From positions 2,458 to 42,457 of the forward strand of contig USNR01000006.1 in the NCBI GenBank assembly GCA_900556135.1: a stretch of 40,000 nt of DNA. The letters are read 5' to 3'. The notes under the pieces were generated by a model. That model was not told where the DNA came from, ran no database searches, and saw nothing but the letters and a program-made list of their open reading frames with translations. This DNA comes from an uncultured Clostridium sp. (lineage in GTDB: Bacteria; Bacillota; Clostridia; TANB77; CAG-508). Positions 3,000-36,627 of this stretch are shown here, one piece after another (within the stretch, counting starts at the first letter, position 1; each line of letters begins with the position of its first letter). Made by a program: the position numbers and the translations under genes.

Positions 3000-4214
3000 A
3001 TGAGAAATGTTTTTGATGTTTTAGAAGAAAGAGGATATGTTGAACAAATGACTCATCCCGAAGAAATAAAAAAATTATTTGGAGAAAAATCTGTATCTTT
3101 TTATATTGGAATAGATCCAACTGCGGATAGTTTGCATGTAGGACATTTTGTTTCTTTAATGGTAGCTGGTCATATGCAAAGATGTGGTCATAGACCTATT
3201 ATTTTAGTTGGTGGTGGTACTGCCGTAATTGGTGATCCTTCAGGAAAAACAGATATGCGTAAGATGCTTTCAAGAGAGACTATAGAAAATAACGTTAAGG
3301 GTATAAAAAAACAAATCGAAAAATTTGTTAGCTTTGAAGGTGAAAACGCTGCTATTATAGTTAATAATGCTGATTGGCTTTTGGATTTAAAATTTGTTGA
3401 ATTTATGCGTGAGATTGGTTCTTTGTTCTCAGTTAACAAAATGCTTGCAGCCGAGTGTTATAAAACTAGAATGGAAAATGGCTTAACATTTTTTGAGCTT
3501 GGTTATATGCTTATGCAATCATATGACTTTTTACATTTATATAATGAGTACGGATGTAAACTACAAATGGGTGGAAACGACCAATGGTCTAACATTATTG
3601 GTGGTGTTGAATTAATTAGAAAAATTGGTAAAGATGATTCTTATGGTTTAACATTTAAACTTCTTACTACAAAAGAAGGCAAAAAGATGGGTAAAACTGA
3701 AAAAGGTGCTTTATGGCTAGATCCAGAAAAGACTTCTCCTTATGAATTTTACCAATATTGGAGAAACATTGAAGATGAGAGTGTAAGGAAAGTTCTTTGT
3801 CTACTTACATTTTTGCCAATGGAAAAAATTAATGAATTAACATCAGTTAATGATGAAAGAATTAATGAAGCCAAAAAAGTTGCAGCTTATGAAATTACGA
3901 AACTTGTTCATGGAGAAGAAGAAGCTAAAAAGGCTGAAGCTGCTAGCAATGCTTTATTTGAGGGAAAAGGCGATTTAGAACATATGCCTACTGTAAAATT
4001 AGAAAATCCAAATTGTTCTATATTAGATGCAATTATAGCTTCTGGAATTGCCCCTTCAAAATCTCAAGCTAAAACTTTAGTTGCTCAAAATGGTATATCT
4101 TTAAATGATAATGTTATTTCAGATACAGGTTATACCTTGTCTGATACAGATTTTAAAGAAGGTTATGCTATACTAAAAAAAGGTAAAAAGATATTCTATA
4201 AATTAGTAAAATAG
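3000..4214 (+). CDS. tyrS: Tyrosine--tRNA ligase
   Basis: It has the HIGH motif (LHVGHF), a KMSKS-like KKMGKTEKG, and a C-terminal S4-like domain. I moved the start to the ATG at 3000 (MRNVFDVLEERGY), which follows GGAGG. The track start at 2955 adds a non-conserved leader. Confidence 0.92.
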   Translation: MRNVFDVLEERGYVEQMTHPEEIKKLFGEKSVSFYIGIDPTADSLHVGHFVSLMVAGHMQRCGHRPIILVGGGTAVIGDPSGKTDMRKMLSRETIENNVKGIKKQIEKFVSFEGENAAIIVNNADWLLDLKFVEFMREIGSLFSVNKMLAAECYKTRMENGLTFFELGYMLMQSYDFLHLYNEYGCKLQMGGNDQWSNIIGGVELIRKIGKDDSYGLTFKLLTTKEGKKMGKTEKGALWLDPEKTSPYEFYQYWRNIEDESVRKVLCLLTFLPMEKINELTSVNDERINEAKKVAAYEITKLVHGEEEAKKAEAASNALFEGKGDLEHMPTVKLENPNCSILDAIIASGIAPSKSQAKTLVAQNGISLNDNVISDTGYTLSDTDFKEGYAILKKGKKIFYKLVK

Positions 4215-4276
4215 AATTTTCTATGTAATGTATTTTTATATAATAAGAAATTTTATAATTTTCCTATTACATAAAT

Positions 4277-4314
4277 CAAAAAAGAGTGATTCTTTGCAAA
4301 ATCGCTCTTTTTTG
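4277..4314. terminator. Bidirectional terminator between convergent tyrS and mnmA
   Basis: The hairpin is caaaaaagagtgatt...aatcgctcttttttg, with one G-U position and A/T runs on both sides. Confidence 0.7.
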
Positions 4315-5453: not shown

Positions 5454-7223
5454 CTATTCACCTTGTGATTTTAATCTTAAGTATCCTAACTCGTTCCATT
5501 CATTATATGCTAAGTTTAATCTAAATACTAGTTTTGGCTTACTACCAGCTCTGTTTTTATCTACTATACAAGAATAATATCTCACATCTGGATCTTCAAA
5601 CTTTTCTAAATCAAAAAACTTTGTGTCCACTTCATTTAAAGAATATTCGTATTTTCCTAAATCTTCATTATGAATTTGTTTAAACAAACATAGTGTATCT
5701 AAAACTTCTTTTACTGTTCTGCTAACGGCTAAATCGTTTATATTTAGGTTTATTGGATCTGTATTTGTTTCTGCTAATTGTAATGTAGATGCTATAAACA
5801 TATTAAAGTTTTGAGCCAAATTTGAAAGTATTGTTGCTGTTCTTTTTATTTCTTCGCCATTTCCAATGTTATCTATATCAGTCTTTAATGTGTCATAAAA
5901 TACATATTCAACTTTTTCTTTATAGTAGTAATTCATTATAACCTTTTTCAATTCATCGTTTGTATGATCTGTGATGTTTATAAAATACATATAATTGCTT
6001 ATCTGTTTATTAAACCAGTCTGTTACAGCTGTAGTCATTTTAAACTCTTTAGAAATTTTAAGTAATCTTTTAACAAAATCTGCATGAGATTCTCCTTCTT
6101 CTTGAAGTATAAATCCATCTTCATCAACATTTGCTAAACTCTTATCATCTGGTCTATATTTAAACTCTAAAAGTTCTCCCTCTGTTTTATGAAGCTTTTG
6201 GCCATGTAATTCCTGTATTGCTGGACTATTTACTATTGTTGTTATTAAACATAACTTCATCTTTTCTTCTGACATTTCATTTGATATTATTAGCACTTTT
6301 TTCTTATGGATTAAGGCTATATATGAAGCTACATTAATTGTAAATCTACTCTTACCAGAGTTTGAAGGCATAGCAAATGCCATTGTTTCGCCTTGTCTTA
6401 CTCCTTTAAACACACTAGATAAGATTTTAAATGGTAACTCTAATCCATTTGTTAATGTATTATTTCCTTGAACTAAAAAATCTGTAATATTCTCATTTAA
6501 AATAGCTCTCTTAAATTTTTCTGTAACAGTTATTTGTTCTATAGCACTTTCAACTTCTTCAATAGACATTTCGTCATATAATTTGTAATCTAAAATCCCT
6601 GCAATTTCTCTTTGTATTGTTCTAACTGGAATAGCCAAATAGCTTTTTCTTATAACAAATAACTTTTTTAATTCTGTATATACACTCTCCATGCTTTCTT
6701 TAACTTCGTTATATTCTGCTTTTAGTTTTGCCTTTAATCTATCTATTTCTGGTGTTTTCTTAGCAAAGTTAAAACCTGCCTTAGCAGCTTCTGGAGCATA
6801 TTTTTCTGCATCAGTGAAAATTACAGTTTTATATATATTTAAAATATCATCATTAACAAAATAACATTCGTCATATTTAAAATAATACACAGCAATCGCT
6901 TTTACCTCATTAAGCAACATTCCTATATACTTTCTTTCTAATTCATCATCAGCTAAAGCAGGAGGATAACCTATATCAAAATTTTCTTCTTTACTAGCCT
7001 CTTCCCTTTCTTTTCTTTCTTGTTCCTCTTTTTCTTCGTTTTCTCTTCTTTCTATTTCTTGAAGTCTTTTAATTGCTGGTAGAGCTTCTAGTAAATTATT
7101 TTCATCAAGTTTCCTTTGTATATTCTCAATCTCATCTCTATTTTTATCTGTTACTTTAATCTTATCAACAATGCTTCTTATTTTTTCAATTTGACTTTCC
7201 ATAAAACCTATTCTCCCTTTCAT
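5454..7223 (-). CDS. Divergent DnaB-family (RecA-fold) helicase-like protein with an N-terminal coiled-coil, Glu/Lys-rich extension
   Basis: The Walker A context is FAMPSNSGKSRFTINVASYIA, followed by LIISNEMSEEKMKLCL (compare DnaB F.SLEMS..QL). Degenerate equivalents of later DnaB motifs follow: VFYDTLKT, STLQLAE, VSRTVKEVLDT, VDKNRAGSKP. A DnaB-N-like block ERKYIGMLLNEVKAI is also present. The start could instead be the second ATG at 7202. Confidence 0.6.
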   Translation of the reverse strand: MKGRIGFMESQIEKIRSIVDKIKVTDKNRDEIENIQRKLDENNLLEALPAIKRLQEIERRENEEKEEQERKEREEASKEENFDIGYPPALADDELERKYIGMLLNEVKAIAVYYFKYDECYFVNDDILNIYKTVIFTDAEKYAPEAAKAGFNFAKKTPEIDRLKAKLKAEYNEVKESMESVYTELKKLFVIRKSYLAIPVRTIQREIAGILDYKLYDEMSIEEVESAIEQITVTEKFKRAILNENITDFLVQGNNTLTNGLELPFKILSSVFKGVRQGETMAFAMPSNSGKSRFTINVASYIALIHKKKVLIISNEMSEEKMKLCLITTIVNSPAIQELHGQKLHKTEGELLEFKYRPDDKSLANVDEDGFILQEEGESHADFVKRLLKISKEFKMTTAVTDWFNKQISNYMYFINITDHTNDELKKVIMNYYYKEKVEYVFYDTLKTDIDNIGNGEEIKRTATILSNLAQNFNMFIASTLQLAETNTDPINLNINDLAVSRTVKEVLDTLCLFKQIHNEDLGKYEYSLNEVDTKFFDLEKFEDPDVRYYSCIVDKNRAGSKPKLVFRLNLAYNEWNELGYLRLKSQGE

Positions 7224-7269: not shown

Positions 7270-7301
7270 AAAAGGGGCTTAAAAAATTTTTAAGCTCCTT
7301 T
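7270..7301 (-). terminator. Rho-independent terminator after the 607-aa membrane protein gene
   Basis: On the minus strand the hairpin reads aggagcttaaaaa/tttttaagcccct, followed by TTTTATT. It overlaps the stop codon. Confidence 0.55.
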
Positions 7302-9123
7302 ATTCTACTTTTGAAAACAATACTTCATTATTACTATTAAAAATAATTTTATACATTGTTTTTTCTTCTATATCTTCATTTTCAAATAAATCCTTGTAAT
7401 CTCTCTCCAAAAATCTATCCCTTGTATTAACAAACACATATGAATAATTCTCATTTCTTAATATGTTTGTAAATTCATCTTTTCCCATAGTCAGTTTAGA
7501 ACTTTTATTTCCAATCCTTAATGGTAAAAACTCGTATTTTACTATTGTTATTTCCCTTCCATCAACCAAATTACTTATATAATACACTTTAGCATCTTTA
7601 TCAATCATATCTGAATATTTTAAAATTCCTGTATATTTTTCTCTATAAGCAATTCTTGCTTGTTGGTTCGTTTTATTTTGAATATAATTCTTGTTTATCG
7701 TATCAATTGGTAAAAACGTAATCATTATTGCCAGAATTATAAACATATATGATGTTTTCAAATTTTTATCCTTATAGTTTTGTTCAATCATAAAAATATT
7801 TATAATAGTTATTGCAAATGGGATTGCAGATAAATATCTTTCATAACATGCTAAGATAACTGCCTCTTCTGGTGTAAATATAAATAGAAAAATTAATAAT
7901 AATCCAAATATACAAATCCCCCAAAATATCAGCATAGCAATAGATATAATTGCAAAAGTTTTTTTACTTTTTTCATCCATAAAAAATACATAAGAAATTA
8001 TATCAAATCCAATCAAAAACATAGCTAAGTTAATGACATTCATTTTCCTAGAAGTTAATGTTCCTGACCACAAAAACAGTTCATTTACATATCTCTTGAT
8101 AGTCGTTTTTTGATAATATTCTCCATTACCACTTAATACATCTTTAATTTTTGAAATACTAATATTTTCCATATTCCACTTGATATTTGCATCATTAATA
8201 TTAAGCTTTATCAACCATGCACCATAAAAAATTAGAACTCCTGCTATAACTATAAGCAATAATTTTATATTATCTTTTCTATCTTGTCCTTTTTTTCTGG
8301 TTAATAATATGTTAAGTCCAAATATAATTATGGCTACAATAACATATGCAATTCCTATAGATTTAGATAAGGTCATTGCTATGCATCCTAAAACAACAGA
8401 AGCTTTTTCACCTTTTTCTGCTATGTTTATCCAACTATAAATAACATATGCTAGCATACAAGCTAGAAATCCATCCATAAACAATGTTATATAGAAATTA
8501 TCATAAAACATTATTGGAAGCAATAATATTATTGGTATTAAAACTACTAATTTTTTTAGGCTTTTATCCCATTTAATATTTCTTAGTAATGGAATTATGA
8601 AAGATGCATATAGTATGTTTAATGCAATTATAATTGTATCTTCTGAATATGCCCTTTTTATAATTAGCATAAAATATTGAAAAATGCTTATAAAAGGTGG
8701 ATACTCGCTATATTCTATAATATCTCCAATTCCAAAACTTCCACATTCGTACATGTTTTTTACTATTAATCCCCAATGTGAAAACTCATCAAATTCTTGA
8801 AACAATATTCCTTTATTAAATAGTACAAAAATTAAATATAGTAGAGCATATACTACCACTCCTGGTGTAAGTATGTCGTCTTTTATATTTATTGATTTTC
8901 TATTTTTTATATAAGAATAAATTATATAAATCATGCAACATAGAGTAATTGCCATTACTGCAATTACTCCATATATAAGCTTATTAAATATTCCAAATAC
9001 ATATATTGCGAGCACAATTTCAATAACTGAAATTGGTATACTTACTTCAATTTTTGTTTTCGTTTTTATAGTTAATGCAATTGAATTAATTAAAATAATT
9101 ATAAATGTAAATATATATTCCAT
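7300..9123 (-). CDS. Polytopic integral membrane protein (about 13-15 predicted TM segments plus a ~130-aa soluble C-terminal domain); possibly a GT-C-fold glycosyltransferase-like protein
   Basis: The translation is dominated by hydrophobic helices. A loop motif FQEFDEFSHWG follows the early helices, reminiscent of the acidic loop of GT-C enzymes; that reading is inference only. An RBS (AAGGAAAAA) precedes the ATG. The gene starts 35 nt downstream of the pilin-like gene on the same strand. Confidence 0.55.
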   Translation of the reverse strand: MEYIFTFIIILINSIALTIKTKTKIEVSIPISVIEIVLAIYVFGIFNKLIYGVIAVMAITLCCMIYIIYSYIKNRKSINIKDDILTPGVVVYALLYLIFVLFNKGILFQEFDEFSHWGLIVKNMYECGSFGIGDIIEYSEYPPFISIFQYFMLIIKRAYSEDTIIIALNILYASFIIPLLRNIKWDKSLKKLVVLIPIILLLPIMFYDNFYITLFMDGFLACMLAYVIYSWINIAEKGEKASVVLGCIAMTLSKSIGIAYVIVAIIIFGLNILLTRKKGQDRKDNIKLLLIVIAGVLIFYGAWLIKLNINDANIKWNMENISISKIKDVLSGNGEYYQKTTIKRYVNELFLWSGTLTSRKMNVINLAMFLIGFDIISYVFFMDEKSKKTFAIISIAMLIFWGICIFGLLLIFLFIFTPEEAVILACYERYLSAIPFAITIINIFMIEQNYKDKNLKTSYMFIILAIMITFLPIDTINKNYIQNKTNQQARIAYREKYTGILKYSDMIDKDAKVYYISNLVDGREITIVKYEFLPLRIGNKSSKLTMGKDEFTNILRNENYSYVFVNTRDRFLERDYKDLFENEDIEEKTMYKIIFNSNNEVLFSKVE

Positions 9124-9158: not shown

Positions 9159-10379
9159 TTAAATATATAAAATAGCTCTAAATCCAACATCTTTAGATGT
9201 ATCAGTGGTATTTACTGTATAAGTCATATTATCCTCACCTCTAAATGATGTAAAATAGTCTGTTTTAGAAAATCTTCCTCCTCTATTAACTCCTCCATTT
9301 AAAATGTTATTTCCAATTCTCCAAGCACATACCTCTGTTGTCCATTCTCCCAAGTTGCCTGCCATATCATTTATTTTACATTGCTCATCACCAATTGTTC
9401 CTGTATTTGTTAAGTTGGTATTTTTAGTAGTCCTCATAGAATAATCATTTGCATTTGAACATTCTTGTATATATACTATTGCAGTATCCCATGCATAGCT
9501 ATTTGTTAAATAGCTATTTATTTCTACATATATGTTTTTACATGCAGATATCGCACCTGTCTGATTAATATAATTCCATAATGTTCCTTTTTTTAGTTTC
9601 TCTGTTGTATTGCTATTATCTGCACTAATTCTTGAATTTGCTTTTCCACCTGTTCCATAGCTTGCTTCATATCTTGCTATATAATATCCACCATTAGTTA
9701 CAGCACTAATCTTGAAAGTATCAACTTCATCACCATTTTCTGTTGCACACCAATATGGAGATATACCATTTTGTACATAATCGTAAGAATAAATTGCATC
9801 ATATGTGCATAAGACTTTTTCTCCTGTGCTGTTGAATGCATATCTAGCTAACTGTATCTCTTTACCATTTGATAATGTTCCATTATCCGAATATGGGGTT
9901 GTAGCATCTCCATTAGTATCCTTTGTTACAGGTACCCATACATATTGATTGCCTCTTCCATTAAAGATATCATCATCTTCGATTACAACTCCCTCTATAA
10001 CACTTGAGCCACTATCTTCCGCAACTTTAAATCCCTTTGGAATAACAACCGTATCTCCATTTTTATCTTTTACTGTTTTATTTTCTTCAACATAATTACC
10101 TGCACTTTTTATTTTTCCAAACTCAGATTTATCAATTCCTAAAATTTTATCCATATCATTATCAACTGTATCTAGTTGTTCTTGTTCATTCGCACTTGCA
10201 TTTGCATATTTTTCCTTTCCCTCTTGAGCCTTTTTTATTATTCCATTATTATCTAGCACTAGCCTTATACTTATTCCTGCCAAGATTAATAATACAACAA
10301 TTGTTATTACAAGTGCCACCAATGTTATACCTGATTGTTTATTTCCTTTCTTTAAAATTTTTCCTTTGTTATTTTCCAT
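9159..10379 (-). CDS. Pilin-like N-terminal anchor protein with a C-terminal FGE-sulfatase (SUMF1/C-type-lectin-fold) domain
   Basis: The N-terminus KKGNKQSG-ITLVALVITIVVLLILAGISI resembles a class III (prepilin) signal but lacks Phe+1 and Glu+5. The C-terminal half has YYIARYEAS, DMAGNLGEWT, RGG and VGFRAI, motifs typical of FGE-sulfatase-domain proteins. A strong RBS (AAGGAGGA) is present. Confidence 0.7.
   Translation of the reverse strand: MENNKGKILKKGNKQSGITLVALVITIVVLLILAGISIRLVLDNNGIIKKAQEGKEKYANASANEQEQLDTVDNDMDKILGIDKSEFGKIKSAGNYVEENKTVKDKNGDTVVIPKGFKVAEDSGSSVIEGVVIEDDDIFNGRGNQYVWVPVTKDTNGDATTPYSDNGTLSNGKEIQLARYAFNSTGEKVLCTYDAIYSYDYVQNGISPYWCATENGDEVDTFKISAVTNGGYYIARYEASYGTGGKANSRISADNSNTTEKLKKGTLWNYINQTGAISACKNIYVEINSYLTNSYAWDTAIVYIQECSNANDYSMRTTKNTNLTNTGTIGDEQCKINDMAGNLGEWTTEVCAWRIGNNILNGGVNRGGRFSKTDYFTSFRGEDNMTYTVNTTDTSKDVGFRAILYI
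10206..10361 (-). repeat. Copy 1 of the shared pilin-like N-terminal module (paralogous to 35122..35277)
   Basis: By my count, 45 of 52 aligned residues are identical between KILKKGNKQSGITLVALVITIVVLLILAGISIRLVLDNNGIIKKAQEGKEKY and KIFKKGSKQSGITLVALVVTVVILLILAGISIRLVLDNNGIIKKSEEGKEKY. Confidence 0.85.
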
Positions 10380-10609
10380 AACGTCTTCCTCCTTAATTTT
10401 TATTTTTTTGTATGCTTAATATCTAATTCAATTAACATTTTATAATAAGATGTTATTTTTTACAATACTTTTTTTCATTTATCCCACCTCATTTTTTACA
10501 AAATTAATTCAATTTTTATCAATAAATAAATTCTTTAGATTTAATGAGAAAACTGTAGAAAATTGAAGAATTTTGAAACATATGGAAGAATAATCGTTAG
10601 AATCTGAAA

Positions 10610-26940: not shown

Positions 26941-28477
26941 TTAGTTTTTCCAATATTTTCTATCTAAACTCCTATATTGAATTGCTTCTGCTACATGTTT
27001 GCTTTCTATATTTTTACTTTCTTCCAAATCTGCAATAGTTCTTGCAACCTTTAAAATTCTCCCATATGCTCTTGCACTCAAACCTAATTTTTCAAAAACA
27101 GATTTCATTATTTTTTTGCCTTTCTCATCTAAAACGCAGTATTTTTCTACCAACTTTGGTGTTAATTCTGCATTAGAATAAATATGATAATCTTTATATC
27201 TTTCTATTTGTATTTTTCTAGCTTTATTCACTCTCTGTCTTATTGTACTTGACTTTTCTATAGGTTTGTTTGAATTTAAGTTTTCATATTTTACTGGTGT
27301 TACTTCTATTTGTATATCTATTCTATCTAATAAAGGTCCGCTTACCTTTCCCATATATCGCTCTATCGCTTTAGTTGTACATGTACATTCTTTTTCTACC
27401 GAGCCATAAAATCCACAAGGGCATGGATTCATAGAAGCAACAAACATAAATTGACATGGATATGTTAATGTTGCATTTACTCTACTTATAGTTACTATTC
27501 CATCTTCTAATGGTCCTCTTAATACTTCCAATGTTGATTTATCGAACTCTGGTAACTCATCTAGGAACAATACTCCAAAATGAGCTAAACTTATTTCTCC
27601 TGGTTTAGGTATTTTTCCTCCACCTATCAAAGAAGCTTTTGATATTGTATGATGTGGAGCCCTACATTGTCTTTCTGTAACCAATGGCTTATTTGAAGGA
27701 AGTTTTCCTGCCACACTATAAATTTTGCTAATTTCTAAGGATTCTTCAAATGTTAAATCTGGTAATATTGTGGGTATTCTTTTAGCCATCATAGTTTTTC
27801 CGAGACCCTGGGCTACCTATTAATATACAATTATGTCCGCCTGCTGCCGCAACTTCTAATGCTCTTTTTATATTTTCTTGCCCCTTTACCTCTGCAAAGT
27901 CCAGTATTTTGCTTTCTTTGTTCTTAAAAATCTCATTTAAGTCAACTTCTTCTGTACCAATATTAACTTTTCCGTTCAAATAACCAACAACTTCAGTTAA
28001 CGAACTTACTCCTAGAACTTCTATTCCTTTTACTATTGCTCCCTCTTTTGCGTTCTCTTTGGGCACAATTATTTTCTTTATTCCCAATTTTTTTGCCTCT
28101 ATACATATTGGCAATATACCGTTAATTTTATTTATTTTCCCATCCAAAGAAAGCTCTCCTACAAAAGCTATTTTTTTCTCATTTATTTTGCCTATTTCAC
28201 CAAAATCCAATAATATTCCAATAGCAATAGGTAAATCATAAAAAGTTCCTTCTTTTCTAACATCTGCTGGAGCTAAATTAACTACAATTTTTCTACTTTG
28301 AAATTCATAACCAGAATTTTTAATTGCTGTTCTTACACGTTCTTTTGCTTCCTTTACGCTTATATCTGGAAGTCCTACAATTTCCCAATTTGGCATTCCA
28401 GCTGAAACATCAACTTGCACTTCAATTAAACATCCCTCTAATCCATGAAGCGATATACTATTTATTTTTGATAACAT
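26941..28477 (-). pseudogene. comM: ComM/YifB Mg-chelatase-like AAA+ ATPase, split by a 1-nt insertion inside the Walker A motif
   Basis: ORF 27782..28477 ends ...[20 protein letters not shown] 26941..27792 begins [13 protein letters not shown]. Deleting the coding-strand C that is complementary to position 27802 restores [18 protein letters not shown]. Confidence 0.85.
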
Positions 28478-34125: not shown

Positions 34126-35292
34126 CTATTCCTTATAATTTACTGTGATAGTGGTTTTCTTAAGATATGGACTATTCCAATCCGAATTCCATCCACTTGG
34201 TTCTTTTCCTTTTTTGAATGGTACATTTACAGTAATTTTTCCCCCCGTATCAAATGCATATTTTCCCATACTCGTTACTGAATTTGGTATTGTTATTTCT
34301 GTTAAGTTACTACAATCTCTAAAAGTATATTGTCCTATTTTGATTACAGAATCTGGTATTGTTATTTCTGTTAAATTTTTACATCCATAAAATCCATAGT
34401 CATCTATGCTTGTCACGGAGTCTGGTATCGTTATTTCTATTAAATTTTCGCACCCATGAAATGCACTATCTCCTATACTTGTCACAGAATCAGGTAACGT
34501 TATATTAGTTAAACTAATGCAACTATTAAAAGCATCATTTCCTATACTTGTTACAGAATCTGGTATTGTTATATTTGTTAAGTTTTCACACTGCATAAAA
34601 GTACAAGGAAAAATCTCATCTTGTTCCACTGGAATCTTTATATTAGTTTTCAGTTTAAAGCACCCCCAAAAAGCCCCAACCCCTATATATTTCACAGAAC
34701 TTGGTATTTCAATGTCTTCTAATTCTACTGTTCCTGTTAAAGCCCAGTCTCCTATCTCTTCAATTCCCTTAGATATTTTTATTTTTTTTGTTATGTTTTG
34801 TGCTCCTGTATGATTTGACCCTAATCCAACAGCAACAGAACAAATGCTATTGTCCCAAATAGACACTTTATCTCCTGAATATCCCATATTTCTTCCATCT
34901 GCTCCATAAATTCTTTTAACTCTAATTCCTTTGATCGAATTTGGGATAACTAACTCTGTTGCATTTCCTTTATAAGCTGTTATTGTTAATGTTCCGTCAT
35001 CTTCTGTTTTATATTCCCAATCATCTATATTTTCTGGCTCTACAATAGATGGTCCAGATATATCTTCTATCCAATCTAATGCATTATCTAGGTCAGTTTG
35101 CTCATTTTCTTTCGCCTGTCCATACTTTTCTTTGCCTTCCTCTGACTTTTTTATTATTCCATTGTTATCTAACACTAACCTTATACTTATTCCTGCTAAT
35201 ATTAATAATATAACAACAGTCACAACAAGAGCCACTAAGGTTATACCAGATTGTTTGCTTCCTTTCTTAAAAATTTTGCATTTGTTACTCAT
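34126..35292 (-). CDS. Pilin-like N-terminal anchor protein with C-terminal BspA-type leucine-rich repeats
   Basis: It has the same N-terminal module as 9159..10379 (KKGSKQSG-ITLVALVVTVVILLILAGISI). About 7 LRR_5-type repeats follow, of the form NLTEITIPDSVTSIGxxAFxxC. The start is moved to the ATG at 35292, because the MRRNFN of the track ORF is the RBS GAGGAGG read as codons. Confidence 0.8.
   Translation of the reverse strand: MSNKCKIFKKGSKQSGITLVALVVTVVILLILAGISIRLVLDNNGIIKKSEEGKEKYGQAKENEQTDLDNALDWIEDISGPSIVEPENIDDWEYKTEDDGTLTITAYKGNATELVIPNSIKGIRVKRIYGADGRNMGYSGDKVSIWDNSICSVAVGLGSNHTGAQNITKKIKISKGIEEIGDWALTGTVELEDIEIPSSVKYIGVGAFWGCFKLKTNIKIPVEQDEIFPCTFMQCENLTNITIPDSVTSIGNDAFNSCISLTNITLPDSVTSIGDSAFHGCENLIEITIPDSVTSIDDYGFYGCKNLTEITIPDSVIKIGQYTFRDCSNLTEITIPNSVTSMGKYAFDTGGKITVNVPFKKGKEPSGWNSDWNSPYLKKTTITVNYKE
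34245..34600 (-). repeat. Tandem 69-bp (23-codon) LRR repeat units inside the LRR gene
   Basis: Five consecutive, highly similar DNA units are visible, for example acagaatctggtattgttat(a/t)t(c/t)tgttaa recurring every 69 nt. Confidence 0.8.
35122..35277 (-). repeat. Copy 2 of the shared pilin-like N-terminal module (paralogous to 10206..10361)
   Basis: See copy 1. DNA similarity is visible by eye across the whole segment. Confidence 0.85.
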
Positions 35293-35339
35293 ATTAAAAT
35301 TCCTCCTCATTTTTTATTTTTATTTTTTCTTTTGTAAAA

Positions 35340-35706
35340 TACCTAACATTTCCGAATCAAGTGTTAGTATAATAATTTCAATTCGTAAAGCTCTCCCTGG
35401 GAGTCTGCATTCACACGTCTTCCGTGCGGCGTTGCTTCGATAAGACGGTCGACTTCTACTCTAGCGTATTGGCTAATAAATATGAGACACAATTAGGGAT
35501 TGAAATTTTCTCTTAACTATGAGCATATGTCTTTATCATAGTTTCAGAAGGGAAATTTCTTTTCCTAATTTGGAACATATTATTAGTCAAAATGAGCGGA
35601 CGTCCTTGTAATCAATTAAGTCTTCTACCTTCAATCACTCACTACACAAAGCTTTAGAAACAATCTCACTTTTGTATTAAGTATATTACTTAAGGATTTT
35701 GTTCAT
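35340..35706 (-). ncRNA. Candidate structured RNA or long structured 5' leader of the LRR gene (family not identified)
   Basis: A GC-rich core at 35391-35470 sits in an otherwise AT-rich intergenic region. Nested helices are visible: aactatga (35515-22) with tcatagtt (35536-43); aattagg (35491-97) with cctaatt (35564-70); cgtctt (35416-21) with aagacg (35442-47). A weak terminal hairpin ctaaca/tgttag (35343-67) is followed by AUUUU. There is no credible ORF on either strand. Confidence 0.35.
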
Positions 35707-35712
35707 ATTGGA

Positions 35713-35741
35713 AGTATATCAATAAAACATTGAAAAATCAA
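35713..35741 (-). promoter_or_regulatory. Putative promoter for the structured RNA / LRR gene transcript
   Basis: On the minus strand: TTGATT (35741-35736), a 17-nt spacer, then TATACT (35718-35713). Confidence 0.4.
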
Positions 35742-35871
35742 CATTTAATAACAAAAAGTTATAAAAATTTTTATAAGGACTTTTCCTTTTCAATAAAATT
35801 TTAGCTTTTTTCTTTACATTTTTACCCCATTATAGTACAATAGGTAAGAATTTTTTTTAAAGGAGTTTATC

Positions 35872-36441
35872 ATGGCAGGATTACCAATCGTAGTAAAATA
35901 TTTAATTGTATTTTTTGTAAGTATGGTTCCAATAGTAGAACTAAGAGGAGCAATACCAATTGCTGAAAGCTTGGGATTGAATATATTTTTATATTACCCT
36001 ATTGCAATTATAGGAAACATGTTACCTGTACCAATTATTTATTGGTTTGCAAGAAAGGTTCTTGAATGGGGTAAAGATAAAAAAATTATCGGAAAATTCT
36101 TTACTTGGTGCTTAACCAAAGGTGAAAAAGGTGGAGAAAAATTAAAAGCCTCTGCTGGAAATAGCGGAATATTCTGGGCTTTATTGTTATTTGTTGGAAT
36201 CCCATTACCTGGAACTGGAGCATGGACAGGCACTTTAGCCGCTTCATTCCTAAATCTCGATTTCAAAACAAGTATAGTTGCCATTTCATTAGGTGTTATC
36301 TTAGCAGGTATCATAATGTCTTTAGGAAGCAAAATTGTATCTACCTTTGGATGGGCAGGTGTTATTGCAGTTGTTGTAATTCTTCTTTTAATTATTGTAG
36401 CTTCAATTTTTATAAAAAAGAAAAAGAATAATTCAAAGTAA
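35872..36441 (+). CDS. Small multidrug-export-like membrane protein (COG2426 / Sm_multidrug_ex family)
   Basis: The N-terminus reads VSMVPIVELRGAIPIAESLGL, and a GIPLPGTGAWTG motif and 4-5 TM helices are present. It is preceded by TTTACA-17-TACAAT and the RBS AAAGGAG. Confidence 0.7.
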   Translation: MAGLPIVVKYLIVFFVSMVPIVELRGAIPIAESLGLNIFLYYPIAIIGNMLPVPIIYWFARKVLEWGKDKKIIGKFFTWCLTKGEKGGEKLKASAGNSGIFWALLLFVGIPLPGTGAWTGTLAASFLNLDFKTSIVAISLGVILAGIIMSLGSKIVSTFGWAGVIAVVVILLLIIVASIFIKKKKNNSK

Positions 36442-36627
36442 GAACAAAACTGAAATTTTCAATTTTCAGTCTTTGCTCTACTATTTATGCTTTATCACAA
36501 AATTGGAAATTTCAGTAAATTTGTTCTTGTGCAAAAATTTATGAAATAAATTTTCTGTACAATATATTTGATATAATAGAAAAGTCAGTATGACTTTCCT
36601 ATTATAGAACAAAACTGAAATTTTCAA
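36441..36627. repeat. Three copies of a ~22-nt element in direct / inverted / direct arrangement
   Basis: agaacaaaactgaaattttcaa occurs at 36441-36462 and identically at 36606-36627. An imperfect inverted copy, ggaaatttcagtaaatttgttct, lies at 36505-36527. Confidence 0.8.

Follow-up and report, generated by a model that had tools for sequence, protein, structure and literature searches.

In a 40,000-nt stretch of DNA from an uncultured Clostridium sp. (the window), two genes, here called A and B, encode proteins that begin almost alike and end in unrelated domains, and the question raised by this locus is what such a common beginning does for two otherwise different proteins. A first-pass annotation had proposed a pilin-like handle that carries interchangeable binding domains. 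The analysis reported here points in the same direction: A and B are probably modular type IV pilins built on a head-less handle that lacks Glu5, and they would be cleaved, polymerised into a filament and used in adhesion.

One module and two unrelated cargo domains

Both genes lie on the minus strand where they had first been placed (Table 1), and the count of 45 identical residues among 52 was reproduced between residues 6-57 of gene B (35122..35277) and residues 7-58 of gene A. BLASTP extends the likeness to 55/79 identities (E = 1e-19), which fades out within the gene B linker (residues 44-89) and is followed by nothing significant. Proteins identical to A and B are encoded on contig 4 of GCA_902476995.1, where the database gene call also uses the gene B start at 35292; an ATG further upstream, at 35310, shares bases with the GAGGAGG ribosome-binding site.

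Table 1. Positions of genes A and B, of their predicted parts and of the neighbouring repeat within the window
Feature	Position	Strand	Basis
Gene B, 388 aa: pilin-type handle, helical linker and BspA-type LRR	34126..35292	-	ORF list
Gene B leader, residues 1-16 (MSNKCKIFKKGSKQSG)	35245..35292	-	Lys-rich; Gly-1 last; predicted cut between G16 and I17
Gene B hydrophobic alpha1N-like helix, residues 17-43 (ITLVALVVTVVILLILAGISIRLVLDN)	35164..35244	-	AF2 helix 17-43
Gene B 'NG' break, second amphipathic/acidic helix and linker, residues 44-89	35026..35163	-	AF2
Gene B cargo: BspA-type leucine-rich repeat solenoid, residues 90-388	34129..35025	-	Pfam LRR_5, AF2
Gene A, 406 aa: handle, linker and C-type-lectin/FGE-sulfatase-like domain	9159..10379	-	ORF list
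Gene A leader, residues 1-17 (MENNKGKILKKGNKQSG)	10329..10379	-	Alignment with gene B and family; predicted cut between G17 and I18
Gene A hydrophobic alpha1N-like helix, residues 18-44	10248..10328	-	AF2 helix 20-42
Gene A second helix and acidic linker, residues 45-94	10098..10247	-	AF2 helices 47-80 and 86-93
Gene A cargo: C-type-lectin/FGE-sulfatase-like fold, residues 95-406	9162..10097	-	AF2, Foldseek
Gene B DNA common with gene A (10169-10407): RBS region and codons 1 to ~69	35085..35321	-	blastn
Core of repeat upstream of module genes	35472..35599	.	Three-way alignment

Past the linker the two proteins are unrelated, as had been claimed, gene B carrying BspA-type leucine-rich repeats and gene A a C-type-lectin/FGE-like fold. 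The gene B domain is a clear match to the LRR_5/BspA-type adhesins (PF13306; 187.4 bits against a cut-off of 27.7, in two stretches, E = 1.1e-55), is modelled by AF2 with pLDDT mostly above 90 and contains internal DNA repeats at 34225-34603. Gene A matches FGE-sulfatase (PF03781) at 18.5 bits against a cut-off of 23.3 and over profile positions 151-254 only, and the same family is listed for three of its close homologues in precomputed annotation. The best Foldseek matches of the gene A domain model (pLDDT ~90), weak at E = 2e-3 to 3e-2, are PorK and the variable proteins of diversity-generating retroelements (DGRs) Mtd and TaqVP, all of the C-type-lectin/FGE fold. Gene A itself was considered as a DGR target and rejected as such here, since the window contains no second copy of its 3' end that could act as a template repeat and the larger window ORFs scanned contain no reverse transcriptase domain.

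The C-terminal part of gene A has at least 6,882 homologues, about 400 aa long, and of 119 that were inspected, 115 carry the module or a remnant of it. An alternative handle, 'GG|ATALVFF', forms the N-terminus of some homologues of gene A; it has no Pfam match, and the gene lies among housekeeping genes. The 607-aa membrane protein encoded downstream of gene A is not found beside the homologues elsewhere.

A large family with a near-invariant handle

Far from being confined to two genes, the module is carried by 20,668 protein clusters at E<=1e-10 and by 31,430 at E<=1e-3, as retrieved with a profile of 73 positions and counted in clusters of 50% identity; the best-scoring matches are proteins of 70-706 aa. 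In a logo of 263 family sequences, position -1 is Gly in 260 and Ala in 3, position +1 is Ile in 256, Thr+2, Leu+3, Ala+5 and Leu+6 do not vary, no sequence has Glu at +5, and Thr+9 and Gly+18 (262 sequences) are nearly invariant. A motif held this closely indicates far more constraint than a generic membrane anchor requires.

Equally marked is the diversity of what follows the handle. Among the 94 members of at least 150 aa, most C-terminal domains have no Pfam match, and the remainder include LRR_5 (16), FGE-sulfatase (5), DUF285 (4), Glug, Collar, Big_2 and F5_F8_type_C, so that the cataloguing of C-termini proposed at the outset does reveal many different domains on one handle. Conservation of the module extends over gut Clostridia MAGs of four hosts (human, mouse, rabbit and goat); the window organism has at least three or four handle-bearing genes, scattered round the chromosome, and one related MAG has up to nine among the matches listed. 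In comparison with genome contigs, the relatives of the gene B module among the matches listed are at most 55% identical and belong to other MAGs, and tblastn against 50,697 phage records gave no match.

Keyword literature searches returned no description of this handle variant, and an exact-string search for 'GITLVALV' returned nothing. A paper on a 'conserved pilin' of TANB77 concerns a Tad-type cluster and is unrelated to the family. The closest short matches, P0002 and P0007, were considered as the major pilin of the species and set aside, being frameshifted fragments of LRR fusions.

Pilin-like character of the handle

In the published definition (PMC10191384), a class III signal has a hydrophilic leader whose last residue is Gly or Ala and, after it, a hydrophobic stretch of 20-25 residues; Glu5 occurs 'often but not always'. 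A and B fit this definition, which upholds the proposal of a non-canonical prepilin signal: both leaders end in KQSG followed by Ile, with Gly at -1, and continue into the hydrophobic stretch ITLVALV(V/I)T(V/I)V(I/V)LLILAGISI, modelled by AF2 as helix 17-43 in B and 20-42 in A. The canonical Phe+1 and Glu+5 are indeed absent, being replaced by Ile+1 and Ala+5 in both window genes, as Ala+5 is in 263/263 family members. The usual role of Glu5 in bacterial filaments is to neutralise the amine at the N-terminus of the adjacent subunit (PMC10191384). The two proteins share a predicted architecture of disordered leader, helix, break, second helix and separate confident domain, in which the first helix begins at or close to +1 (at residue 17 in B and residue 20 in A). 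In gene B, residues 1-15 are disordered and a second helix at 46-79 (pLDDT 57-67) gives way to a loop; in gene A, residues 1-18 have pLDDT below 50. According to the AF2 secondary structure, no strands adjoin alpha1C and there is no beta-sheet head on it, so that no pilin head of the lollipop fold is evident in either protein. We know of no described bacterial major pilin that has Ala5.

The only Pfam and PDB sequence matches of the handle are pilins, namely N_methyl at 18 bits, Geobacter PilA-N (E = 0.025), MshA and PilE1. A (18.0 bits) and B (18.1 bits) do not reach the Pfam N_methyl cut-off of 21.2 bits, and a 70-aa stand-alone copy from a pilus operon lies just above it at 21.6. None of the NCBIfam pilin models reaches its cut-off for A or B, the only matches being scores for gene B far under the threshold, 12.5 bits for HpsC pseudopilin (cut-off 200) and 10.6 for prepilin peptidase-dependent pilin (cut-off 138). 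These low scores of A and B count against the pilin reading.

A type IV pilus operon and its peptidase

Pfam scans and phmmer found no prepilin peptidase, PilB or PilC in the window, in keeping with the first-pass annotation. The machinery is encoded elsewhere in the same MAG and sample, on a different contig: contig 12 of GCA_902476995.1 and a contig of SRR1761702 each carry a type IV pilus operon that includes the module as a 69-aa copy, and genes A and B, or contigs identical to the window, occur in that MAG and in that sample. Gene order is PilMN, PilO-like, p128, pilin, PilD-like, two pilin-like genes, PilB (with an MshEN domain), PilT and PilC, all of the named machinery genes being present on contig 12. 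The operon is linked to the window through MAG binning and the shared sample. Its GC content of 0.28 and its tetranucleotide use are compatible with the window but non-discriminating, because unrelated low-GC Clostridia loci score about equally. Stand-alone copies of 69-76 aa sit within type IV pilus operons beside a PilD-like prepilin peptidase, a cargo-free arrangement found in three species-level lineages, and the 69-aa pilin matches gene A at 22/26 and gene B at 21/26 of the first mature residues. A pattern scan found no terminator after the 69/70-aa pilin gene, an imperfect stem being seen by eye only. Taken with the pilin-type signal and helix that A and B share, a pilus operon in the same organism suggests that both are probably pilus-displayed binding proteins. 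The proposal of a conserved handle with interchangeable binding domains thus gains support from more than 20,000 clusters, from diverse C-termini and from the cargo-free copies in operons.

The peptidase itself is unusual. It matches A24_N_bact at 102 bits, and its four Cys are invariant; a scan of the PilD-like enzyme gave no Peptidase_A24 match, and precomputed annotation lists none for 120 homologues. Of 114 homologues, 113 keep the first Asp (D126) and one has Glu there. The position that would align with the second Asp of a reference PilD sequence is Glu in 56, Asp in 31, Asn in 13 and Gln in 11 of the 114 homologues, and it is Glu in the window organism's enzyme; nearby E205 is invariant. 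Prepilin peptidases of the PilD/A24 type have an N-terminal C4 zinc/methylase domain and a Peptidase_A24 domain with two 'universally conserved' catalytic Asp residues, and with the second position variable and a match to the A24 N-terminal domain only, cleavage competence is not assured. A search for a solved prepilin peptidase structure returned only spurious LRR matches.

These observations also bear on the strongest alternative, in which the handle would be a pilin-derived membrane anchor and nothing more. Processed or not, A and B would then stay tethered in the cytoplasmic membrane and never enter a filament, the helical linker projecting the cargo into the wall zone in the manner of idle pseudopilins or of the Sulfolobus sugar-binding proteins with class III signals. 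Housekeeping genes surround the dispersed fused genes, and pilus machinery adjoins none of the 42 genomic loci that carry them; the head domain is absent; the missing Glu5 speaks against standard subunit docking; and cargo of at least 300 aa is too bulky to fit easily within a filament body. However, such tethering would leave unexplained both the roughly 15 near-invariant positions across more than 20,000 clusters and the cargo-free copy beside a peptidase in the pilus operons of three species-level lineages, and a helical linker of about 35 residues, by estimate roughly 5 nm, is too short to span a Gram-positive wall unless the protein is extruded. On this balance we regard a mere anchor as unlikely, and modular pilins as the better account.

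Shared DNA and the upstream repeat

The likeness between the two genes extends to DNA, and reaches the RBS region as claimed: blastn aligns 10169-10407 with 35085-35321 at 77% identity over 239 nt, beginning about 28 nt 5' of each start. Such a segment might act mainly as a recombination substrate, a conserved 5' cassette for swapping of C-termini by a shufflon-like process or gene conversion, and two observations are in line with this. P0004, a 121-aa paralogue on a related contig, has a leader resembling that of gene B, joined to a linker like that of gene A and to gene A's final 20 residues, and the neighbours of gene B differ between the window and GCA_902476995.1, with the switch point just upstream of the module genes. 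In the core of the repeat there, two tracts (35548-35599 and 35472-35522) are the same at three loci, and the crossover between the two assembly arrangements falls at 35529-35599, ~240-310 nt upstream of the gene B start codon: all 83 informative sites at 35600-35799 match contig 14, and all 158 at 35251-35528 match contig 4. In contig 4, inverted repeats of 148 nt lie upstream of gene B.

The coding DNA itself argues against this process. The 156-nt module copies are 83% identical with a longest exact run of 18 nt, and 15 of their identical residues use different codons, which together point to selection on the protein rather than recent gene conversion, so that the suggestion of conserved coding DNA mediating cassette exchange does not hold up. 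Moreover, the crossover sits upstream of the module and not within it, the breakpoint could be an assembly join at the repeat, and no recombinase gene adjoins gene A or gene B in the window. A primary role in recombination is therefore highly improbable; no structured RNA near the two genes matched Rfam at gathering thresholds.

That the module is an ordinary Sec signal-anchor, conserved in appearance through a recent duplication of A and B, is scarcely credible: a Lys-rich N-terminus and a hydrophobic helix of ~25 residues do have the general signal-anchor shape, but the C-termini of A and B share no homology, the synonymous sites have diverged, the motif is conserved family-wide in gut Clostridia MAGs from four host animals, and a copy resides in a pilus operon.

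Comparison with known systems

Modular pilins are established in Streptococcus sanguinis, where PilB carries a vWA module and PilC a lectin module (Raynaud et al. 2021, PMC8179133), and the published survey, collected via IPR012902, comprises ~1,200 proteins of many different architectures, all with a full pilin module including the head (PMC8179133). Like them, A and B consist of an N-terminal pilin module, a linker and a domain that is not pilus-specific, with cargo predicted to be ligand-binding and a type IV pilus from a single-membrane bacterium (PMC8179133); both proteins fit the modular-pilin definition (Raynaud et al. 2021), with a pilin module that lacks its head. Unlike the published examples, the handle is head-less, has Ala+5 in every member examined and, in A and B, scores below the N_methyl cut-off, and its family is more than ten times larger (20,668 clusters against ~1,200 proteins).

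Another point of comparison is provided by tip minor pilins of the GspK/PilK type, which also lack an acidic +5 residue and cap filaments, GspK having an extra domain. Such caps are single-copy, encoded in the operon and part of a conserved complex of four minor pilins, whereas handle genes are scattered and several per genome; no sequence similarity of handle proteins to GspK was found.

In the Sulfolobus bindosome, unrelated extracellular binding proteins reportedly have a pilin-type signal in common. Their surface localisation needs a prepilin peptidase and a pilus-like ATPase/platform, and Glu5 is not required. The bindosome is archaeal, with another signal consensus and another peptidase (PibD), and its likeness to the handle system is functional only; the operon PilB ATPase gives a weak NCBIfam match to BasE.

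The 69-76 aa operon copies, consisting of signal and helix, resemble the head-less short pilins Geobacter PilA-N (61 aa) and Flp. PilA-N ('Geopilin domain 1') is the handle's best, though weak, PDB sequence match, but its aligned chain begins G|FTLIE, with the Phe+1 and Glu+5 that the handle lacks. Flp pilins carry Glu5, and PilA-N works together with PilA-C. The operon described here is T4aP-like (PilB, PilT, PilC, PilMN), unlike the Tad pili of Flp pilins.

Proposed mechanism and implications

The handle comprises a Lys-rich leader ending in Gly, a helix of the form I-T-L-V-A-L-V-(V/I)-T...LILAG, an 'NG' break and a second, amphipathic helix. If A and B are modular pilins, each protein would be inserted by Sec with its leader on the cytoplasmic side and would be cut after the Gly by the PilD-like peptidase of the operon on the other contig; the PilB/PilC/PilMN/PilO machine would then pull the hydrophobic helix out of the membrane into a pilus that also includes the 69-aa cargo-free copy, and the long helical acidic linker would keep the cargo, LRR in B and lectin-like in A, outside the filament. 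Outside the cell wall, both domains may thereby bind ligands or act as adhesins. The subunits could be placed in two ways: the 69-aa subunit may be the major pilin, with cargo subunits scattered along the filament, or the Glu5-less subunits may cap the tip only, as GspK-type minor pilins do, in which case each pilus would present one interchangeable tip adhesin.

A wider proposal, which we advance tentatively and hold to be somewhat doubtful, is that the type IV pilus is a general surface-display scaffold of gut Clostridia, with a head-less subunit of ~62 residues, a universal 'G|ITLVALV' handle without Glu5, dozens of cargo types and a co-diverged peptidase in which the second Asp is not conserved. 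If true, it would imply a subunit-docking rule unlike that of every characterised bacterial type 4 filament, and would represent a major unrecognised route of adhesin display in uncultured gut anaerobes.

Should the handle work in this way, pilus-borne proteins would account for a large part of the surface adhesins in uncultured low-GC gut Clostridia, among them LRR, lectin-like, DUF285, Glug and Ig-like proteins. These adhesins are invisible to standard pilin detectors such as the Pfam/InterPro N_methyl signature, and TIGR02532 and PilFind-type rules, being Glu5-dependent patterns, would miss the handle as well. The 73-position profile could give new annotations to more than 20,000 clusters, most of which are at present labelled 'hypothetical' or 'PulG-like', and the family would offer a natural test of the role of Glu5, as a whole pilin-like lineage with Ala5 and an adjacent peptidase without the canonical second Asp signature.

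Two genes with a common handle and unlike cargo

The window comes from an unremarkable part of the core chromosome of a Firmicute (29% GC; rplS, trmD, rimM, ffh, dnaE, dprA, comM, addA, rnr, tyrS, mnmA), in which genes A and B, both found where the first-pass annotation had placed them, begin with a common N-terminal module, here called the handle, and end in unlike C-terminal cargo. The identity claimed for the handles, 45 of 52 residues, is exact; BLASTP aligns the two products with 55/79 identities (E = 1e-19), and DNA similarity does reach the RBS region, ~28 nt 5' of each start codon. For gene B, 35292 is the most likely start, because the public gene call also begins there and the alternative upstream ATG at 35310 overlaps the RBS GAGGAGG.

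Past the linker, no significant BLASTP match remains, in agreement with the proposed unrelatedness of the C-termini. Gene B carries strong BspA-type LRR_5 cargo (Pfam, 187 bits), and gene A a sub-threshold FGE-sulfatase match (18.5 bits); the closest folds to the gene A model (mean pLDDT = 84.7), all at weak E-values, are PorK and the DGR variable proteins Mtd and TaqVP, with the common C-type-lectin/FGE fold. The final ~50 residues are the most variable stretch of the family alignment of the gene A cargo; the window yielded no DGR template repeat, and the larger ORFs that were scanned included no reverse transcriptase. Neither the 607-aa nor the 589-aa protein encoded downstream of gene A is kept beside gene A homologues elsewhere. 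In addition, the competence-associated, Mg-chelatase-like comM is split between two overlapping ORFs, suggesting a frameshift or pseudogene, with dprA intact alongside.

Coordinates of the features discussed (window positions unless a locus is named; L058 and L056, contig 4 region and contig 12 pilus operon of GCA_902476995.1; L052, contig 14-type locus; L051, related contig; L002, another pilus operon locus; L059, locus of the alternative handle)
Feature	Position	Strand	Size	Remark
Gene A	9159..10379	minus	406 aa	
Gene A cargo	9162-10097			
Gene B	34126..35292	minus	388 aa	
52-residue match	35122..35277			gene B residues 6-57, gene A residues 7-58
DNA similarity, genes A and B	10169-10407; 35085-35321			77% identical
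Polytopic membrane protein	7300-9123		607 aa	36 nt downstream of gene A; no family match
589-aa protein	5454-7223		589 aa	after the 607-aa protein; marginal DnaB_C, just above Pfam cut-off, 73/255 profile positions
comM ORFs	26941-27792; 27782-28477			overlapping
Upstream repeat	35251-35800; L058 5105-5859; L052 6041-6345		~300 nt	before gene B and P0004; 78% identity
Switch in upstream repeat	35529-35599			
P0004	L052 5629-5994		121 aa	
Inverted repeat arms	L058 5112-5259; L058 5689-5833		~148 nt	80-83% complementary
Transposase with flanking upstream-repeat copies	L051 1-406, 739-1899			
Intergenic repeat	36440-36609; 4200-4281; L058 2805-2970; L052 11487-11654		~168 nt	80-88% identity
PilD-like protein	L002 10298-11104; L056 10001-10825			
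Gene with alternative handle	L059 8001-9260			

The handle as a protein family

Hundreds of proteins matched the 80-aa N-terminus, many of them 70-76 aa long and consisting of the module and nothing else. From 30 of them a 73-position profile was made; among 1.84 billion representative proteins it matched 31,430 clusters at E<=1e-3, of which 20,668 reached E<=1e-10, with lengths of 70 to 706 aa for the best-scoring matches; some members are already auto-annotated as 'PulG' or 'type II secretion system protein'. Counted from the predicted prepilin-peptidase cleavage site in 263 members, position -1 is Gly (260) or Ala (3), +1 is Ile in 256, Thr+2, Leu+3, Ala+5 and Leu+6 never vary, Thr+9 and Gly+18 hardly do, and Glu at +5 occurs in none; a 'G-x-N-G-I-I-x-K-A' segment comes next. 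Judged from these sequences, a generic Sec signal-anchor would not stay so constant, and the number of clusters at the stricter threshold, together with the near-invariant positions, speaks against an ordinary Sec signal-anchor limited to two genes. The top-scoring member, P0121 (706 aa), carries the module twice (residues 4-69 and ~391-414), probably by fusion of, or read-through between, two neighbouring module genes.

On the structural level, AF2 models of both products have the same layout: a disordered leader, a first helix (17-43 in gene B, 20-42 in gene A) that begins no more than a few residues from the predicted +1, an interruption at the N-G motif, a ~34-residue second helix (46-79 and 47-80, respectively), a loop and a separate, confident cargo domain. 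In the predicted secondary structure, no beta-sheet head is evident on alpha1C, so the handle would equate to the head-less 69-aa protein of the pilus operon considered below. Against PDB sequences, the handle profile gave five weak matches, four of them to pilins (two chains of Geobacter PilA-N, best E = 0.025; MshA; S. sanguinis PilE1) and the fifth to a flagellin. Class III signals comprise a hydrophilic leader ending in Gly or Ala, followed by 20-25 hydrophobic residues, with Glu5 frequent and not obligatory (PMC10191384), a definition that the handle, as predicted, fits.

Diversity of the cargo

The idea of interchangeable C-terminal domains on one module was borne out by Pfam assignments on 94 representatives of >=150 aa, which include LRR_5 (16), FGE-sulfatase (5), DUF285 (4) and single examples of Glug, phage tail Collar, Big_2, F5_F8_type_C, RCC1 and Invasin_D4, most having no Pfam match. 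Fused genes of 56-562 aa, often in tandem and up to nine per MAG, occupy 42 loci, all in species-representative genomes of uncultured gut Clostridia (human, mouse, rabbit, goat). The gene A cargo by itself has at least 6,882 homologues, ~400 aa long; the module, a recognisable remnant or a truncated N-terminus was present in 115 of the 119 N-termini inspected, some with Ala at -1 and some shortened by wrong start calls or fragmentary contigs, and a different pilin-like N-terminus, e.g. 'GG|ATALVFFTLF', in 10/119. Furthermore, P0351, P0362, P0370 and P0286 carry the lectin-like cargo of gene A behind another N-terminus, e.g. 'KSQRGG|ATALVFFTLFVFLII', which looks like a second pilin-type handle; this alternative handle has no Pfam match, and its gene sits amid housekeeping genes.

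The pilus operon and its putative peptidase

Pilus machinery is absent from the window, as first noted, and none lies beside the fused genes in the 42 loci. Stand-alone copies of the module, P0032 (70 aa) and P0107 (76 aa), sit within a type IV pilus operon ordered PilM-PilN fusion, PilO-like, 128-aa membrane protein, short pilin, PilD-like, two pilin-like genes (sites G|ITGID and G|VTLLE), PilB with an MshEN c-di-GMP-binding domain, PilT and PilC. An operon with a PilD-like homologue also lies on contig CABSFN010000012.1 of GCA_902476995.1, the MAG carrying genes A and B, and on a contig from sample SRR1761702, which has contigs 100% identical to the window; the proposed search for a prepilin peptidase, PilB and PilC thus led to another contig of the same MAG and sample. 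The CABSFN010000012.1 operon encodes a 69-aa protein, MFKKEKG|ITLVALVVTIVVLLILAGVSLSLVLNNQGIITKANAGK..., in which 22 of the first 26 mature residues agree with gene A and 21 with gene B. The composition of this contig is compatible with that of the window (GC 0.28, tetranucleotide r = 0.99), which carries little weight, since low-GC Clostridia loci that are unrelated give similar values. To the extent that MAG binning and sample identity can tell, the organism of the window encodes the machinery elsewhere in its genome.

The PilD-like protein and its 120 homologues have the A24 N-terminal domain as their sole Pfam match, none matching Peptidase_A24. In an alignment of 114 homologues, E205 and the four zinc-binding Cys never vary, and 113 have D126, the first catalytic Asp; the position aligned with the second, placed provisionally with a reference PilD sequence that may be inexact, holds Glu (56), Asp (31), Asn (13) or Gln (11), with Glu in the protein of the window organism. 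Because both catalytic Asp are described as 'universally conserved' in prepilin peptidases (PMC10191384) and the second varies here, either E205 or a Glu may replace it, or part of these enzymes may be non-cleaving.

Recombination and the upstream repeat

Cassette exchange through the conserved coding module, as had been suggested, is not supported by its DNA (83% identity): 26/156 nt differ between genes A and B, the longest exact run is 18 nt, and 15 conserved residues use different codons, a pattern that points to purifying selection on the protein rather than recent gene conversion.

The upstream repeat is a different case. On contig 4 of GCA_902476995.1, gene B lies downstream of an MFS transporter and sporulation genes, and on contig 14 the Sm_multidrug_ex, RNase R and NfeD side present in the window is joined to another paralogue, P0004, in the place that gene B holds in the window. 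In P0004, a chimera or internal-deletion derivative, the leader resembles that of gene B and the linker that of gene A, and of gene A beyond the linker just the last 20 residues remain. In a three-way alignment, the window equals contig 14 at 83/83 informative sites (35600-35799) and contig 4 at 158/158 (35251-35528). The switch, which gives gene B different neighbours in different assemblies, falls inside the repeat, where two tracts (52 and 51 nt) are shared exactly by the three sequences. It is either a real exchange (e.g. inversion between inverted repeat copies) or an assembly join at the repeat; a 6-nt patch that occurs in the window only tips the balance slightly towards a real allele.

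At the contig 4 locus, inverted repeat arms surround a ~430-nt segment just upstream of gene B, a layout that resembles an invertible promoter and is absent from the window's version of the region. A related contig has an IS110-family transposase inserted just upstream of the frameshifted module gene P0007 and flanked by copies of the upstream repeat. A separate intergenic repeat, present in several copies in the organism of the window, has no Rfam match.

Proposed mechanism and significance

Modular pilins, in which a functional domain is grafted onto a pilin module, are established for S. sanguinis PilB and PilC and were surveyed through the IPR012902 signature (~1,200 proteins; PMC8179133). 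Since this concept is established and the handle fits the class III definition, genes A and B can be read as encoding modular pilins that would be cleaved by the PilD-like enzyme and extruded, cargo outward, by the pilus machine. Cargo subunits might be interspersed among the 69-aa subunits of a filament, which would be sterically easy because the C-terminus of every subunit is at the surface, or might be placed at the tip only; tip complexes of filaments are capped by a subunit without Glu5 (PMC10191384), and under tip placement the major pilin could be the operon protein p156 (site G|ITLIE).

The main rival, that the proteins stay membrane-tethered and are never polymerised, is weakened by the extreme sequence constraint on the handle and by the cargo-free copy retained within the pilus operon. 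Constraint, diverse cargo and the operon link together support the original interpretation of a non-canonical pilin-type handle carrying interchangeable binding domains.

Both genes score below the cut-off of Pfam N_methyl, a model related to IPR012902, and may therefore well have been missed by the PMC8179133 survey; no description of a Glu5-less, head-less handle variant was found in the searchable literature. Modular type IV pilins are already known as a kind of system; novelty lies in a handle with neither Glu5 nor head, in the divergent PilD-like peptidase that accompanies it and in how large the family is.
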